This document shows positions 4,344-14,881 of a DNA stretch of 64,000 nucleotides, in pieces. How positions within the stretch are numbered: the first letter of the stretch is position 1; each line of letters starts with the position of its first letter. Made by a program: the position numbers and the translations under genes. Source of the stretch: an uncultured Acidobacteriota bacterium (GTDB taxonomy: Bacteria > Acidobacteriota > Vicinamibacteria > Vicinamibacterales > UBA8438); the NCBI GenBank assembly GCA_913043225.1, contig CAJWLU010000006.1, positions 96,001 to 160,000 on the forward strand, read 5' to 3'. Under the pieces are notes generated by a model. The model was not told the origin of the DNA, did no database searches, and saw only the letters and a program-made list of their open reading frames with translations.

Positions 4344-4844
4344 GTGACCGAGAAGCAGGCGATGATCGGAGCCGTGGTGGGAGTCGCCCTGGTGGGTGGC
4401 ATCGGGGGGTGGATGTTCACCGCCCCGTATCTCGGTAATACCGGACTCTCGCGGACGCCGGGTGTAATCATCGGGGGGACTGAGACGCCGGCTCCTGACG
4501 ACTTCACTCCGCTCAACGATCTAGAGGGGCCGGTCATGATGAAGCTGGCTGGCTTTCCCCCCTTCGTCGTCTACCTGTCTTACGTCGGCACCCCGGAGAT
4601 GGTGATCACGGCGACTCGTCCCGACGGTGGCTACTGGGCTGAGCGGGTGCGTACGGGCAGCGGCGACGGCTGGCTGCGTTTCGCCGGCGAAACCTATCCG
4701 ATGCGGGCCACGGAGGTTATCGGCGACGCCCGGATCCCCTATCTTGAACAGTGGTCCGGTCGTTCCGGGATGCCTATGGACACACCGGTGGGCGGCCCGG
4801 ATCCGCTCCGCGACTGGGAAGTCTTCCTGTGGCGAGCGCGCTAA
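4344..4844 (+). CDS. Hypothetical membrane-anchored protein
   Basis: RBS GGAGG, N-terminal hydrophobic helix, coding-like composition. Confidence 0.7.
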   Translation: MTEKQAMIGAVVGVALVGGIGGWMFTAPYLGNTGLSRTPGVIIGGTETPAPDDFTPLNDLEGPVMMKLAGFPPFVVYLSYVGTPEMVITATRPDGGYWAERVRTGSGDGWLRFAGETYPMRATEVIGDARIPYLEQWSGRSGMPMDTPVGGPDPLRDWEVFLWRAR

Positions 4845-5207: not shown

Positions 5208-7235
5208 CTATTCGACGACCAGTTGACCGATGGTCCACGGGTGCTCGGTGCAGACGTACTCGTGCTCGCCTGCCGTCTCGATGACGACGGAACCGGAAGC
5301 GCCTGCCGCGATAGGCCCGGTCGTCCACGAGCCATCGCGCGCCGAGATGGTGTGGGTCAGATCGGTCGGGTTGGTCCAGGTGACGGTCGCTCCCCTAGCC
5401 ACCGACGCTCGCATCGGCGTCAATCCGTATGGATCGTGCCATTCATCGTTGCGGCCTGTGTTCTGGTTGCTCTGTGTGGTCAGCCGCTTTAGCTCGATGC
5501 TGTTCGTAGCGTCGACAGGGCCCTGGTGTGGGAAGACGGTGAACGGAGGCTCCTGGGCCGGGCGTGGCCCAATCGTCCCGTCGAGTCTGAATGCCCACAC
5601 CGAGCGGTTCATCGTGAGCGCGACATACTGTACGCCGTCGATCTGGTAGGTGGTGACCGGTCCGCCTCCGTGGCCGTTCGAGCCGAAGATCCCGGTCTGC
5701 CCGGTCTGGAACTGCCACAGCAGATCGCCGGTCCGCTGATCATAGGCGCCCAGGTTTCCGTCAGGCTCGGTGTGGAACATAAGGCCGCTGGCCGTCGTCA
5801 TGGCGCCGCTGCTATTGCAGTCCGAGTAAGGGACGCGGTGCTCCCAGGCCAGCGTGTTCGTACGACTGTCGAGCGCCACGTGCAGACCATGCTGGGTCAG
5901 TCCAGGCGCGCGGACGGTGGTATTGGTGAAGAACCATCCGTTCTCGGGCCGCTTGATCCAGCGGGGATACACGCAGGCCATCCCGTAGAAGTAGCCGGTC
6001 ACGGGACTGTAGGACATCGGGGCGAACCGCATGGTCATGTAGGGAATGAACATATTCGGCAGCTCGGGCGGGATCGGGTCGTAGTAGCAGCCGGCGCGGA
6101 ATCCGTCTGGGATCATGTCCGGATCTACGCACTCCTGACCGACCTTGTCCGCCCCGACTGGGAACGGCTGGGTGGGTGAGGTGTTCAGGAAAGAGTTTTG
6201 AGGGACCGGCCTCTCTTCGATGGGGAAGATCGGCTCGCCGGTCTTCGCGTCGAACATGAAGAGGTAGCCATCGGTGCGCATCGCCGCGAGGGCTCGTGTT
6301 GTTTCTCCCTCCACCATCGCGTCGTAGACGATTAGCGGGGTTGCCATGTCGTGCTCCCACATGTCGTGGTGCACGAGCTGCTGATGCCACCGGTACTCGC
6401 CCGTCTGCAGGTCGAGCGCGATGACCGAAGAGGTGAACAGGTTATCGCCCGGGCGCAGCTCGCCGCCCCACATCGGCACTGCGTTTCCGGACCCGACGTA
6501 GAACATGCCCAGATCCGCGTCGACCGTCGGGGTCATCCACACCCCGCCGCCTCCAAATCTCCAGACATCGCTGTCTACCGGCCAGCTGTCAGCCCCAAGC
6601 TCTCCCGGCTCGGGAACGACCTCGAACGTCCAGCGTCTCTCTCCGGTGCGGGCATCGACCGCAGCAATACGTCCACGCAGATAGCTGTCGCCGTTCGCCA
6701 TGCCGGTGATAACCAGGCCGTCGGCATACGTGGACGGTGACGAGATCCACTGACCCCACTGTCCGTCCACTCCGACGAGGTGTTCCCACGCGAGCTCGCC
6801 GGTCTCTTGGTCGAGCGCGATCAGTCGGGAGTCGTTAAGGCCCGCAAACACCAGCCCGGCCCCGAGCGCGACACCTTTGTTCATCCGCCCGATCGGCGCT
6901 TCGTGACGCCACCGTTCTTCCCCTGTGGTCGCGTCCAGTGCCCGGATGCTGCTTCCGGTTTGGAGAAATACCAGACCGTTCCGCATGACCAGCGCCGACC
7001 GCGACGCCTCGCCCCGGTCCAGGTCAGCCACCCAAGCACCTCGGAGCCGATCGACATTCTCGGTTGTGATTTGGGTCAGGGTCGAATGCCGAGTCTGGCC
7101 GAAGTGTCCACCAGGCAAAGGCCACTCTTCCGCCGGATAGGCCTGCCAGTTCTCGTTCTGGGCGGTTGCCCCCCCAGCTGCGGCGAGACAGAGCACGAGA
7201 AGCACCAGGGACAGTCGTTGAAATGTCATGGTCAC
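5208..7235 (-). CDS. PQQ-dependent dehydrogenase (alcohol DH-like) with C-terminal cupredoxin domain
   Basis: Signal peptide, Trp-docking repeats, GGGGVW, GSGNAVP, RPGDNLFTSS, HHDMWEHD; C-terminal VTWTN..THT...YVCTEHPWTIGQLVVE. Confidence 0.9.
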   Translation of the reverse strand: MTMTFQRLSLVLLVLCLAAAGGATAQNENWQAYPAEEWPLPGGHFGQTRHSTLTQITTENVDRLRGAWVADLDRGEASRSALVMRNGLVFLQTGSSIRALDATTGEERWRHEAPIGRMNKGVALGAGLVFAGLNDSRLIALDQETGELAWEHLVGVDGQWGQWISSPSTYADGLVITGMANGDSYLRGRIAAVDARTGERRWTFEVVPEPGELGADSWPVDSDVWRFGGGGVWMTPTVDADLGMFYVGSGNAVPMWGGELRPGDNLFTSSVIALDLQTGEYRWHQQLVHHDMWEHDMATPLIVYDAMVEGETTRALAAMRTDGYLFMFDAKTGEPIFPIEERPVPQNSFLNTSPTQPFPVGADKVGQECVDPDMIPDGFRAGCYYDPIPPELPNMFIPYMTMRFAPMSYSPVTGYFYGMACVYPRWIKRPENGWFFTNTTVRAPGLTQHGLHVALDSRTNTLAWEHRVPYSDCNSSGAMTTASGLMFHTEPDGNLGAYDQRTGDLLWQFQTGQTGIFGSNGHGGGPVTTYQIDGVQYVALTMNRSVWAFRLDGTIGPRPAQEPPFTVFPHQGPVDATNSIELKRLTTQSNQNTGRNDEWHDPYGLTPMRASVARGATVTWTNPTDLTHTISARDGSWTTGPIAAGASGSVVIETAGEHEYVCTEHPWTIGQLVVE

Positions 7236-7474: not shown

Positions 7475-8449
7475 CTATTGCTGCCGCGCTTCGGCTTGGG
7501 CCCCAGCGAGGATGTTGTAGAGCCCGTAGTTTCCCTCATGGCAGGCGTATTCGAACAGCGTGTCTTCGGTCCGCGCCATCGTCATCTCCGCGCTCCACGG
7601 CTGGGTGAAGGCGGTGGGGTCGTTCACGGTGAACTCGTAGCGCAGTATTCCATCGTCAGGCCGGGTGAACCGCTCGATTAGGTGCATGTTGGGCCCGAGC
7701 GCTTCTAGACGCTCCATGTTCGGGGCCGGGTGCGCGGTGCCGATGTCGCGGAAATTGCGGGTCTCGACCACGAGGGTCTCGCCTTCCCACCGGCCGCGTG
7801 AGTCGCCGCGCCATTGCTGGATGTGCGGGGGGATGGGGTCGCGACCGTCGAGGGGAATCACCCGGACGTCGTTCACCATCTCGTTCATTACGACCACATA
7901 ACCCGGGGCTTGGAAGATGTGGACGAGGTTGTTGTAGGCGCCAGGAATCATCGGCGGGCCAGAGTTAAAGCCCAGGATGCAGCGCTCGTCGATGTCACGG
8001 TCTTCGGGGCCCGCGTTGCGCTCGCGCGCCGCGGCGCGGGCCGCCCTGCGAGCTCGGCCCTCCGCGGTGTAGTCGGGGAGCTGCCCATTGGGCGGGTCGA
8101 CGATGAGTGACGTGCGTCGCGTCCCGACTACCGCGCTACCTCGATCGAACCAGAACTGGTTGTAGGCGCCGGGATCGCCGGGTCGCGGGGCCACCTCGAC
8201 CTGGGCGGCTGCGGCGCGCTGGGCCTCGAACTCGGCGGCTTGTTCGGCGGAGAGAAAGGCCTGATCCCCTAGCGCAGCCGGTCGCAGGAGCGGGGTGACG
8301 GTGCCGAAGTCCCAGATGCCCTGGAGGTTGGGAGTGCCGTCCGACAGTCGGGGAGACGTGCCTTGGCCAGCGACGGGTGACGGTGTCAACTGGGCGGCGA
8401 CGACAACGATGGCGAAAAGCGTAGCGGCGCGGGCACGATGCAGATTCAT
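7475..8449 (-). CDS. Uncharacterised exported protein, YACHEGN family (copy 1)
   Basis: PNLQGIW, YNQFW, RTSLIVDPPNG, ERC, GDSRGRWEGETLVVET, FEYACHEGNY; likely ATG at 8449. Confidence 0.85.
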   Translation of the reverse strand: MNLHRARAATLFAIVVVAAQLTPSPVAGQGTSPRLSDGTPNLQGIWDFGTVTPLLRPAALGDQAFLSAEQAAEFEAQRAAAAQVEVAPRPGDPGAYNQFWFDRGSAVVGTRRTSLIVDPPNGQLPDYTAEGRARRAARAAARERNAGPEDRDIDERCILGFNSGPPMIPGAYNNLVHIFQAPGYVVVMNEMVNDVRVIPLDGRDPIPPHIQQWRGDSRGRWEGETLVVETRNFRDIGTAHPAPNMERLEALGPNMHLIERFTRPDDGILRYEFTVNDPTAFTQPWSAEMTMARTEDTLFEYACHEGNYGLYNILAGAQAEARQQ

Positions 8450-8759
8450 CTGGCGAGTCCCTCCCTTTGAGCCTGTCCATACTAGCTGATCGTCCGGCAG
8501 AGCTCCCGAGATGTCCGGTGTGCGCAGTAGCGACGTGGTCGGCTTCTTCATCTCCAGCCGTTGCGTGAAGCAGCCAGGGGAATCTGAGGGAATTTGTGGG
8601 CCTGTAATTGAATGTCGGAAACGTCCTGAACCGTGGCAGCTTCATTGATTGCAGCGGGGCATGACTTGCTCTTCGTTCAGTTGAGAGACGTCTTATCGTC
8701 TCGTCGGAGCACGCTACGCCTGCAGGTCAAGCTGTGAGAAAGTATGCAGCAAAGCAGCT

Positions 8760-10634
8760 ATGGTCAGAACCAGTTCTCGCTCGAGACGTGATTTCATGGA
8801 GAATGCTGCCCTGCTTGTCGGGGCAGCGGCAGCCAGCGGTTGTTCGCCACAAGAACCGCGACCGGCCGCGGTCGGCGTGACTGTCGGCGGGTCTGGGCAG
8901 CGCGCGACGCCCACCATCCATCCGCATCACAACGACCGCACAAAAGGGTGGTTGCGGTTTCTGTGGGAGAAGGCCACCACGCCTGACGACTGGAGTTATC
9001 GGGGGGACGAAGAACTGCCTTGGGGCATCACTATGGATGCGGCCTCGCAGCGCAGCACGCCGGACTTCACCGTTGGTGGTAATGGGCCCCATCCCTGGTG
9101 GGACCAGTACAGCGCACTGCCGTACTTGAGCTACCCGCGCTTCGACCTGAGCGATTCGAGCTATCCGTTGCTGTTGATGGCCGACCAAACGCCCGCGTGG
9201 CGTGAGGTCTATACGCGGATCCTTGATGAATTGGCGACCCGACATACGGCCTATTGGGCCGCCATCGATTGGAACAGCTTTATCGGAACGAGTCCGGATC
9301 GAGGGAACTATCCGGACGGGATGATGGCCGGATGGCCGGAGCGTCTTCGTGGCAACTACGACCACCCCGGTTGGACGGCGAACGGCGTGGAGCCGTGGGG
9401 GCTCCAGCCGGACCCGATTGGTGCCGACGGCAACCTATTCTTTCGAGGCTGGTTGAATCTGGTGCTGGGCATCTATAAGTACGTCTCAGGTGACGACAAG
9501 TGGGAGCGCCCTTGGCATATCGCGGGATTCGAGGGGCAACAGTTCGAGTGGACGCAGCCGAGGGTGGTCGAGCATCTGCAACGTCAGTACACCGAGCGAC
9601 CAGAGGGCCCGCAGTGCGAGAACACCAAAATCTGGCCGGTGTGTAACAGCGCCGCCGGGCTGGGAATCTACCTATCGGACCAGCTCGGGGTGACCCGCGC
9701 ACACGGAGCGTTCGAGAACTGGATCGAGTTCGCGAAAGACAACTACATGGGGTTCAACGAGCGAAACGAGCTCGAGTGGATAACGGCGTTCTACGATCCG
9801 TTGGAGAACTTCAAGCTGAACGGTCCACCTGGGGGGAGTGGCATGCTGGCGTTCTACCTCCTTCCGCAGTCGCGCGAGATCGGCACCCAGGTCTACGACG
9901 CGGCGGCCAACGCCCTGGGCTGGCGCGATCCGCGGCGGGAGATTGGTCCTGACCCGCTGGGATTGGTCGTTGCAAAGGCGCTGGGTGACCACACGGCGGC
10001 GGCCCGGTTGAGCGCCGCGGCGGAGCGCGACAACGAGCCACTGTGGTTTGGTGACGACGGGGACCGCTTTGGCTGGGGATTTGGCCTGAACGAACCCTGG
10101 CCCCGTGGCCAGGGCACGGCCCGGATGATGGTGTCGGAGATCCAGGAAGGGAGTTGGCTCGACGCGTTCGAGTGCAAGCACCTGGACAAATACAACGCCC
10201 CGACGGTCGAAGGCGTGGAGTATCCGATCGTGGGGGTCGATCAGGCCTGGAACGATCCTGAGAGCGGGGTACTTCATGTCGGCACCTATGCAGCCGACCG
10301 CTCGCGTCGTGGCCAGGACACGAGCTGGACGGTAACGAACCTGCCGAACGCCAGCGATGCGGTCGTGCTTCAGAACGGCTCGGAGCTGCCGGCAGAAGTC
10401 GTTGACTCCGACCGGATTCGCATCCGGACCACGGTCGGCGATTACCGGTACCAGATTTTCACAGGGTATCGCGGGCAGGCATCGGGGGTGGCGCAGCGAG
10501 AGGCGCGCGAAGAGGCGGCCGGTGGCGCCATGTTTGCGACGCCTAGCCGGACCGCCGCCGAGAACGCTCAGGCCGCCGAAGCGGTGATGCTGAGTGGATC
10601 GGCGAGCTGCCCCTGTTGCGGCGGTTCAGCCTAG
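8760..10634 (+). CDS. Linalool dehydratase/isomerase-like Tat lipoprotein
   Basis: SRRDFM Tat motif and ASGC lipobox; DPIGADGNLFFRGWLNL and CENTKIWPVCNS match LDI DPIEKENIMYKGHLNL and CEPDNYFVQCNS (recalled). Confidence 0.75.
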   Translation: MVRTSSRSRRDFMENAALLVGAAAASGCSPQEPRPAAVGVTVGGSGQRATPTIHPHHNDRTKGWLRFLWEKATTPDDWSYRGDEELPWGITMDAASQRSTPDFTVGGNGPHPWWDQYSALPYLSYPRFDLSDSSYPLLLMADQTPAWREVYTRILDELATRHTAYWAAIDWNSFIGTSPDRGNYPDGMMAGWPERLRGNYDHPGWTANGVEPWGLQPDPIGADGNLFFRGWLNLVLGIYKYVSGDDKWERPWHIAGFEGQQFEWTQPRVVEHLQRQYTERPEGPQCENTKIWPVCNSAAGLGIYLSDQLGVTRAHGAFENWIEFAKDNYMGFNERNELEWITAFYDPLENFKLNGPPGGSGMLAFYLLPQSREIGTQVYDAAANALGWRDPRREIGPDPLGLVVAKALGDHTAAARLSAAAERDNEPLWFGDDGDRFGWGFGLNEPWPRGQGTARMMVSEIQEGSWLDAFECKHLDKYNAPTVEGVEYPIVGVDQAWNDPESGVLHVGTYAADRSRRGQDTSWTVTNLPNASDAVVLQNGSELPAEVVDSDRIRIRTTVGDYRYQIFTGYRGQASGVAQREAREEAAGGAMFATPSRTAAENAQAAEAVMLSGSASCPCCGGSA

Positions 10635-13948: not shown

Positions 13949-14881
13949 ATGAGCCGACCGATTGCAGACGTTGCGCTGGCGCTCCTAGCGCTCGGGTGTG
14001 GAGTACTGCCCGCCTCTGCGCAGTCCGGTTTCGACGCGCGCACGTCTTGGGGCGATCCGGACCTGCAGGGTGTCTGGTCCTACGCCACACTGACCCCGTT
14101 CGAGCGGCCCGAGGAGTTCGAGGGGCGCGCCCGCTACACCCCAGAGGAAGCGGCGGCCTACACGGAGCTTCGGAAGACCGACCGGCCCGACCGGCCGGGC
14201 GTGGATCCGGGCGGCTACAACGCGCTGTGGTGGGACGGCGGGTGGATTCTGCCGGACAACCGCACGTCCCAAATCGTCGACCCACCCAGTGGTCGCCTGC
14301 CACTCAACGAGACCGGGCGAGCACGGCTGAAAGGGCTACGGCAGCATCGGCGGGAGCATCCAGCCGATTCGTTCACCGATCGCACCAACTGGGACCGGTG
14401 CCTGACCTATCACGGCGTGCCTCCGGTGGGGACGAACTACAACAACTCGTACCACATTCTCCAGACGCCAGACGTGGTGGCCATTCAGGTGGAGAACATC
14501 CACGACGTGCGCATGATCCCGCTGGGCGACAAGCCCCGGCTCGACGCCTCAATCGGGCAATGGAACGGCGACTCGCGGGCCTACTGGGATGGAGATACGC
14601 TGGTGGTCGAGACCCGAAACTACAGCGACAAGACCGAACTGCGGTTTCTCTCGACGCCGAACACACGAGCCGTGGAGCGGTTCACCCGCATCGGTCCCGA
14701 CACCATCGACTACACCTTCACGATCGAGGACAACGAGATCTACACGCAGCCCTGGACCGTCGACCGTCCGATGGCCAGGCTCGACGACTACATCATCTAC
14801 GAATACGCTTGCCACGAAGGGAACTACGCGTTGACCAACATCATGGCTGGTGAACGGGTGCGCGAGGCCGGCGGTCGCTAG
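13949..14881 (+). CDS. Uncharacterised exported protein, YACHEGN family (copy 2)
   Basis: TSWGDPDLQGVW, TPFERP, DRC, YNNSYHILQTP, GDSRAYWDGDTLVVET, YEYACHEGNY. Confidence 0.85.
   Translation: MSRPIADVALALLALGCGVLPASAQSGFDARTSWGDPDLQGVWSYATLTPFERPEEFEGRARYTPEEAAAYTELRKTDRPDRPGVDPGGYNALWWDGGWILPDNRTSQIVDPPSGRLPLNETGRARLKGLRQHRREHPADSFTDRTNWDRCLTYHGVPPVGTNYNNSYHILQTPDVVAIQVENIHDVRMIPLGDKPRLDASIGQWNGDSRAYWDGDTLVVETRNYSDKTELRFLSTPNTRAVERFTRIGPDTIDYTFTIEDNEIYTQPWTVDRPMARLDDYIIYEYACHEGNYALTNIMAGERVREAGGR

Follow-up and report, generated by a model that had tools for sequence, protein, structure and literature searches.

We lean towards reading an open reading frame on the minus strand of the window, a 64,000-nucleotide stretch of DNA from an uncultured Acidobacteriota bacterium, as the gene for a quinoprotein dehydrogenase that is secreted, probably to the periplasm, and to which a copper relay is fused, copper replacing the haem c of the type II quinohaemoproteins. 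The region flagged initially, 5208-5500, is the C-terminal end of this 675-codon ORF (5208..7235; this and the other coordinates within the gene refer to the minus strand), which codes for a probable signal peptide followed by a PQQ propeller and a cupredoxin, and gives a protein of 675 aa from a GTG or 673 aa from an ATG at 7229; the database copy (P0003) has 673 aa. A probable Sec signal peptide, read by eye (aa 1-25, 7161..7235, with Ala-x-Ala preceding Gln26), is followed by a PQQ-type dehydrogenase propeller without the vicinal Cys-Cys loop (aa 33-555, 5571..7139; PF01011, E 5e-81), whose top PDB match is the type II quinohaemoprotein 1kb0 (E 7e-52). A Pro-rich linker (aa 556-579, 5499..5570), conserved in length (W547 to I580 cover 34 aa in 102 of the 130 members of the clade described below), leads to an amicyanin-like cupredoxin domain of ~96 residues recognized by sequence matches (aa 580-675, 5211..5498). 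We also noted two plus-strand neighbors in the window: a 166-aa, membrane-anchored, single-copy ORF that is convergent with the PQQ-cupredoxin gene and has no Pfam match (4344-4844), and one encoding 624 aa, whose product has a linalool dehydratase/isomerase domain in addition to a Tat-like N-terminus (8760-10634; PF18566, E 3e-10).

The sequence-only reading had seen in the C-terminal region a fused amicyanin-like cupredoxin with His, Cys and His kept, Thr in place of Met and no CxxCH motif, and alignment with phmmer bore this description out. The candidate copper ligands His628 (5352..5354), Cys662 (5250-5252) and His665 (5241-5243), together with Thr668 (5232-5234, codon ACC), align with amicyanin His53, Cys92, His95 and Met98 (E 4e-4), and Glu664 lies at the position of Pro94 in the same copper loop (5232..5252). 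The amicyanin-type equatorial His-Cys-His set on a short loop is present, the axial Met98 is absent, and CxxCH does not occur in the ORF protein. In phmmer searches the domain matched PDB 9cck (E 1e-12) and 5fc9 (E 3e-7), and an ESM Atlas model matched cupredoxin clusters with TM 0.65-0.74. The amicyanin model TIGR02657 was matched at E 2.8e-7, yet at 30.8 bits, far under its cut-off of 110.2, and Pfam Copper-bind scored 18.3, under its cut-off of 21.2. In the marine RNA libraries of two studies, two short contigs span the copper loop and match it with 0 differences, so an assembly error as the source of Thr668 is ruled out; contigs from such libraries extend over much of the gene but cannot demonstrate transcription. 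Eight short matches to the cupredoxin domain look like fragments rather than stand-alone forms (five of the eight were read), and tandem multi-cupredoxins overwhelmed a profile search of 1.84 billion representatives, which gave no family size. These tandem proteins (P0323-P0472, for example P0323 with 1154 aa) carry 3-12 amicyanin-like domains, in most of which the Cys/His/Met loop is intact, and have no PQQ domain; they are secreted-looking in the few N-termini read and are possible poly-copper wires.

A homologue search with the ORF protein gave 149 matches, 120 of them listed. The listed homologues longer than 640 aa were pooled with propellers scoring above 430 bits from 78 GTDB loci, the four paralogues in the genome and five outgroups. 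Removal of fragments and one duplicate left 200 rows, whose propeller columns alone were used for the tree. The protein sits in a clade of 130 rows (FastTree 100; SH-aLRT 100 in a 52-row IQ-TREE subset), all of which have the cupredoxin. The His/Cys/His triad is kept in 103 members, in which the axial position is Ser (59), Thr (26), Ala (17) or Val (1) and never Met, and the loss of Met is therefore not a private change of this protein, one of the two outcomes that the sequence-only reading had named as telling against it. Met is found at the axial position in two ligand-less members. At Cys+2, the position of amicyanin Pro94, 96 of the 103 triad-bearing members have Asp or Glu; as background, among 464 loops of unrelated tandem cupredoxins Met is kept in 399 and an acidic Cys+2 occurs in none. 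Named clade members belong to Acidobacteriota (largely Vicinamibacterales), Rhodospirillales, Steroidobacteraceae and Acidimicrobiia, and those that keep the triad span Acidobacteriota, Alphaproteobacteria, one gammaproteobacterium and one actinobacterium at 42-83% identity. The source genome has four clade copies, all with the triad intact and with axial T, A, A and A; the positions of its paralogues on the tree suggest that the host, a marine bacterium, probably belongs to Vicinamibacterales. Matches were found in 19 of 24 genomes of the same family, with 1 to 10 each, and in only 3 of 16 genomes of other families in the order, all of them short ORFs. The Met-less branch is widespread and apparently unstudied.

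Fusions of a PQQ propeller to a cupredoxin with an amicyanin-type Met loop were found among the GTDB loci in Alphaproteobacteria (L049) and Chloroflexota (L029, L051, L076); at the alphaproteobacterial locus, three such canonical PQQ and type 1 copper fusions lie in tandem (L049:3116-10196). The L049 protein aligns with the ORF protein end to end at 35% identity. A search with it gave 898 matches, and in the best 120 of these (P0131-P0250) His/Cys/His is present in all, with axial Met in 112 and Gln, as in stellacyanin, in 8. These 120 also keep the PQQ pocket (Glu70, Arg122, Glu185, Trp245, Asn263, Asp308 and the extra Asp, in 1kb0 numbering), and 117 of them the vicinal Cys-Cys. Like the clade, the canonical fusions have the propeller-cupredoxin architecture and Cys369, and they are uncharacterized, with automatic names only; they differ from it in keeping Met or Gln, Pro94, Cys-Cys and E-N-D-D metal ligands and in being without the insert. 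This insert of ~13 residues in the clade's cupredoxin (about aa 583-601, 5433..5489) is apparent from the I580-P607 span, which has a median of 27 aa in the clade and is 14 aa in 113 of 113 canonical fusions. PQQ-cupredoxin architectures also exist in automatic annotations (for example JGI 'glucose dehydrogenase/plastocyanin'), and ESM Atlas lists PQQ plus Copper-bind clusters. A further fusion type in ESM Atlas, mostly from Chloroflexota, joins PQQ to a sulfocyanin (PF06525 SoxE, 83% of 204 members).

In the 52-row IQ-TREE, the canonical fusions and the Met-less clade group together with an SH-aLRT of 98, separated from the carriers of cytochrome c (95), and on this tree the Met-less clade is a descendant or a sister of the canonical fusions; the Chloroflexota fusions branch separately, so there may have been one or several fusion events. 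A Cys369/Cys383 pair, a probable disulfide (6087..6131), marks the cupredoxin-fused lineage, being present in 130/130 clade members and 120/120 canonical fusions and in 0/44 haem-carrying relatives. The latter are the 44 of the 200 rows in which related propellers have a C-terminal cytochrome c and no cupredoxin. The case for this slot being an electron relay rests most strongly on its being shared by cytochrome c and cupredoxin on related propellers. In nine clade members the cupredoxin is itself followed by a cytochrome c, in keeping with a PQQ-Cu-haem chain. These PQQ-cupredoxin-cytochrome c proteins are L013:5800-8448, P0094, P0103, P0106, P0108, P0114, P0119, P0121 and P0122, and L013 comes from a cultured strain, Peristeroidobacter agariperforans KA5-B.

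The full copper triad is missing in 27 of the 130 clade members, and copper is thus dispensable in part of the clade. Parsimony gives about 8 changes of Cys state on the clade tree. The 27 keep the cupredoxin domain, with a scaffold that is equally conserved (0.69 versus 0.65), and the propeller site (27/27), which argues that the cupredoxin must serve something besides copper binding, plausibly as a lid via the insert. The domain might be mainly a structural lid in this clade, its insert replacing the deleted Cys-Cys loop and shaping substrate specificity, its copper site a decaying relic, and electrons leaving via external carriers. We regard this as unlikely, along with the order of decay that it proposes, in which Met goes first and Cys and His afterwards. 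The coincidence of insert gain and Cys-Cys loop loss on the clade agrees with a lid, as do the roughly eight independent changes of Cys state over a retained scaffold; the top raw covariation pairs join the insert (587-600) to variable propeller loops, a pattern confounded by phylogeny. Variable loops and phylogeny account for most of the covariation signal as a whole (MI/APC, 130 rows, Neff 65), and we do not use it as contact evidence. However, all three ligands persist in 79% of members (103/130), across several phyla and at 42-83% identity, and in 102 of these 103 the axial residue is Ser, Thr or Ala, a restriction at odds with free drift. Without a function, an unpaired Cys in an exported protein also seems unlikely to persist.

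What kind of copper site the fused relay would have is suggested by characterized cupredoxins. A higher potential had been expected from the missing Met, but this does not follow from a change to a small polar residue, because water can enter. According to the accessible text of one report, Met loss raises the potential when a hydrophobic residue keeps water out; in the small laccase variant M298L water entered and the potential dropped by 12 mV, and its site is compared there with that of the purple Nitrosopumilus maritimus cupredoxin, which has an axial water (PMC12109610). This archaeal protein, Nmar1307 (5fc9), has no Met, and the accessible part of its description gives a potential of about +361 mV and bands at 413 and 558 nm (PMC13746201). 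Since the nearest solved relative without Met is purple with an axial water, a perturbed site is likelier here than a classic blue one. For amicyanin, available portions of the literature give a potential of 255 mV (PMC6115626), raised by N54S (+111 mV) and by P94A/F (PMC12723479). The ORF protein has Thr629 at Asn54 and Glu664 at Pro94; Thr or Ser at 629 is common to the canonical fusions too, and a carboxylate at Glu664 would lower the potential. Our best guess is a perturbed, possibly water-ligated site with a potential moderately above that of amicyanin and probably not laccase-like; candidates for the fourth ligand are the Thr668 OH, Glu664 and water.

An open site of this kind might instead be catalytic, the His2Cys copper binding O2, NO or another small ligand and making the protein a self-contained oxidase or coupling alcohol or sugar oxidation to NO chemistry. 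We consider this improbable. Nmar1307 does combine an open, water-bound site with NO oxidase activity (PMC13746201, PMC12109610, accessible text), and type 1 sites without an axial ligand can take exogenous ligands, as stated in the available part of PMC6115626; however, the NO chemistry of Nmar1307 is described as outer-sphere (PMC13746201), no nitrogen-oxide genes were found near the PQQ-cupredoxin gene, and the cytochrome c added in some members suits a relay. The acidic Cys+2, absent from the unrelated tandem-cupredoxin loops, also speaks for a catalytic copper, and in raw counts it accompanies the ligands, occurring in 96/103 triad-bearing and 7/27 triad-less members (Fisher p 3e-12). This link was gone in independent phylogenetic pairs (8 pairs, median p 0.5), and we make no claim that the acidic residue coevolved with ligand retention.

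On the alignments, the PQQ pocket is heavily remodeled alongside the copper site in this clade, a feature on which the sequence-only reading had not remarked, and PQQ binding is therefore a prediction only. The vicinal Cys-Cys is absent from the ORF protein and from all 130 members; in 1kb0 this disulfide is presumably part of the path from PQQ to haem. The W109-G121 loop has 13 aa in the ORF protein, with a clade median of 15 versus 22 in the canonical fusions. The position of 1kb0 Glu70, which we take to have a PQQ-binding role (the roles of the other 1kb0 pocket residues are likewise assumed), is Arg79 (6999..7001) in the ORF protein and Arg or Lys in 123/130 clade members, versus Glu in 114/120 canonical fusions. 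The Asn394 position is Arg in 128/130 members, and the basic residue corresponding to Lys335 is displaced by one position (Arg320) in 124/130. The predicted metal site consists of Asp183 (6687-6689), Asn251 (6483-6485), Glu294 (6354-6356) and Asp296 (6348-6350); it contains the residues of the canonical Glu-Asn-Asp(-Asp) arrangement, but Glu and Asp have changed places, and it (6348..6689) retains the extra lanthanide-type Asp. This D-N-E-D pattern occurs in 91/130 clade rows, with E-N-D-D in 54/70 other rows. Trp233, Asn251 and Asp296 are almost invariant in the clade. In a P0050-type subclade of 19/130 rows, Arg stands at the first metal ligand (the Glu185 equivalent) and the copper triad is intact; the PQQ site of these proteins is possibly metal-free. 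To us, replacement by cationic residues and an exchange of Glu and Asp look like the signs of a rebuilt PQQ/metal site and not of a dead one.

The propeller might, on the other hand, no longer use PQQ at all, having become a protein with another cofactor or a non-catalytic ligand-binding protein and not a quinoprotein. The changes at Glu70, Lys335 and Asn394, the loss of Cys-Cys and the Arg at the first metal ligand in 19 members would all fit this. The models for PQQ/Ca or PQQ/Ln alcohol dehydrogenases (TIGR03075) and for 'acido_non_PQQ' proteins, the acido-empty-quinoprotein group A (TIGR04528), are matched about equally, at 275.9 and 267.4 bits, both under their cut-offs of 480.05 and 650. 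In addition, neither pqqC nor pqqE was found in the source genome (3.85 Mb, 96% complete), and pqqC is absent in 5/6 relatives with the closest orthologues. We nevertheless hold a propeller that has abandoned PQQ to be improbable too, given the near invariance of Trp233, Asn251 and Asp296, replacements whose cationic character would allow them to bind the PQQ carboxylates, and the 77 strong PQQ-propeller ORFs of the source genome (86 at E<=1e-15), canonical ones among them. A pqqC above cut-off is found in 8/24 genomes of the same family, which indicates that the search works and that the source genome likely scavenges PQQ.

Across 36 loci of the PQQ-cupredoxin gene we found no conserved specific neighbor, with flanks of only ~1.5 kb at 20 of the 36. 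The sole recurrent neighbor is an unannotated family with about 87 copies in the genome; its proteins of ~310-360 aa are secreted-looking, have no Pfam match and are often encoded beside PQQ genes, and two lie in the window (7475-8551, minus; 13949-14881, plus). The source genome also has a haem-copper oxidase subunit I match and 50 cytochrome-c domain matches.

Taken as a fused copper relay, the protein may work as follows. Scavenged PQQ would bind with Ca2+ or a lanthanide at Asp183-Asn251-Glu294-Asp296 and oxidize a substrate that is probably not a small primary alcohol. PQQH2 reoxidation proceeds in one-electron steps, and here the His2Cys copper would take up single electrons and hand them on, by way of a cytochrome c, to a haem-copper oxidase. 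Thr, Ser or Ala in the axial position probably leaves the copper pocket open or filled with water, and the site perturbed and of the purple type, similar to that of Nmar1307. In type II alcohol dehydrogenases, azurin is the natural acceptor according to the accessible text of PMC8348568. Several features of the sequences speak against a relay: the loss of the triad in about a fifth of the clade, the missing vicinal disulfide, the replaced PQQ residues, the lack of pqqC and pqqE, and a cupredoxin domain that reaches neither the Pfam nor the TIGR cut-off. The initial idea of a 'quino-cuproprotein' with a built-in relay survives in part: comparison with colinear relatives that have a textbook type 1 site or a cytochrome c in the slot supports it well, copper is dispensable in part of the clade, and PQQ binding, copper binding and electron transfer are predictions.

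Like the type II quinohaemoprotein alcohol dehydrogenases (1kb0, 1kv9, 1yiq; EC 1.1.9.1), which are its best PDB matches, it has a secreted PQQ propeller, a Pro-rich linker and a C-terminal one-electron carrier; in contrast to them, this carrier is a cupredoxin and not a cytochrome c, CxxCH and the vicinal Cys-Cys are lacking, the metal ligands are D-N-E-D, and Arg occupies the Glu70 and Asn394 positions. With amicyanin (1aac; TIGR02657) it shares the fold family, the short C-x-x-H-x-x-axial loop and the His/Cys/His positions, whereas amicyanin is a free protein with methylamine dehydrogenase as partner and the domain here is fused, has Thr, Glu and Thr for Met98, Pro94 and Asn54, and contains the insert. 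As these defining features fail, the protein is neither a type II quinohaemoprotein nor an amicyanin, though it is proposed to work like the former. The closest solved domains, Nmar1307 and the C-terminal cupredoxin of 9cck, have the same C-x-x-H-P-W-x loop; 5fc9 also lacks Met, but has Arg at the axial position and no acidic Cys+2 and is a free archaeal protein, whereas the 9cck cupredoxin has Met and forms part of a fusion with a multicopper protein. Comparable too are the lanthanide-dependent PQQ dehydrogenases of marine Acidobacteria, with an extra Asp at +2 and dozens of such enzymes per genome (up to 70 genes), which the 77 propeller ORFs of the source genome resemble; the D-N-E-D site, in contrast, is non-standard, and neither 'copper' nor 'cupredoxin' occurs in the main text of that study (bioRxiv 10.1101/2023.07.25.550467).

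We found no description of a PQQ-cupredoxin fusion in the literature searched, a body of work that excludes most subscription papers and supplements. The built-in carriers of PQQ enzymes that a review lists in its accessible text are all haems (PMC6472588), and separate blue copper proteins as acceptors for archaeal PQQ dehydrogenases appear only as speculation in the available part of PMC7300363. We tentatively suggest that the clade may be a distinct and widespread PQQ/lanthanide class, in which PQQ would pass electrons to a natural His2Cys copper with axial Ser, Thr or Ala and an acidic Cys+2, the insert would cap the rebuilt active site, and some members would unite PQQ, copper and haem in one polypeptide. 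Equally tentative is its corollary that a carboxylate- or water-ligated axial site with an acidic Cys+2 is new among natural cupredoxins, none being described in the portions of the literature searched.

If true, the exchange of copper for haem would establish 'quino-cuproproteins' as a class of their own, with members in the hundreds in databases (149 and 898 matches, with the fusion checked in part of them). The canonical Met/Gln fusions are the cleanest quino-cuproproteins for testing. On a single scaffold, they and the clade offer a natural series of copper sites with Met, with Gln, with Ser/Thr/Ala and without ligands. How the axial ligand tunes type 1 copper, until now mainly a subject of protein engineering, thereby becomes testable in natural enzymes. 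The fusions also bear on direct-electron-transfer biosensors, and a copper relay in place of haem may bear on iron-sparing in marine heterotrophs.
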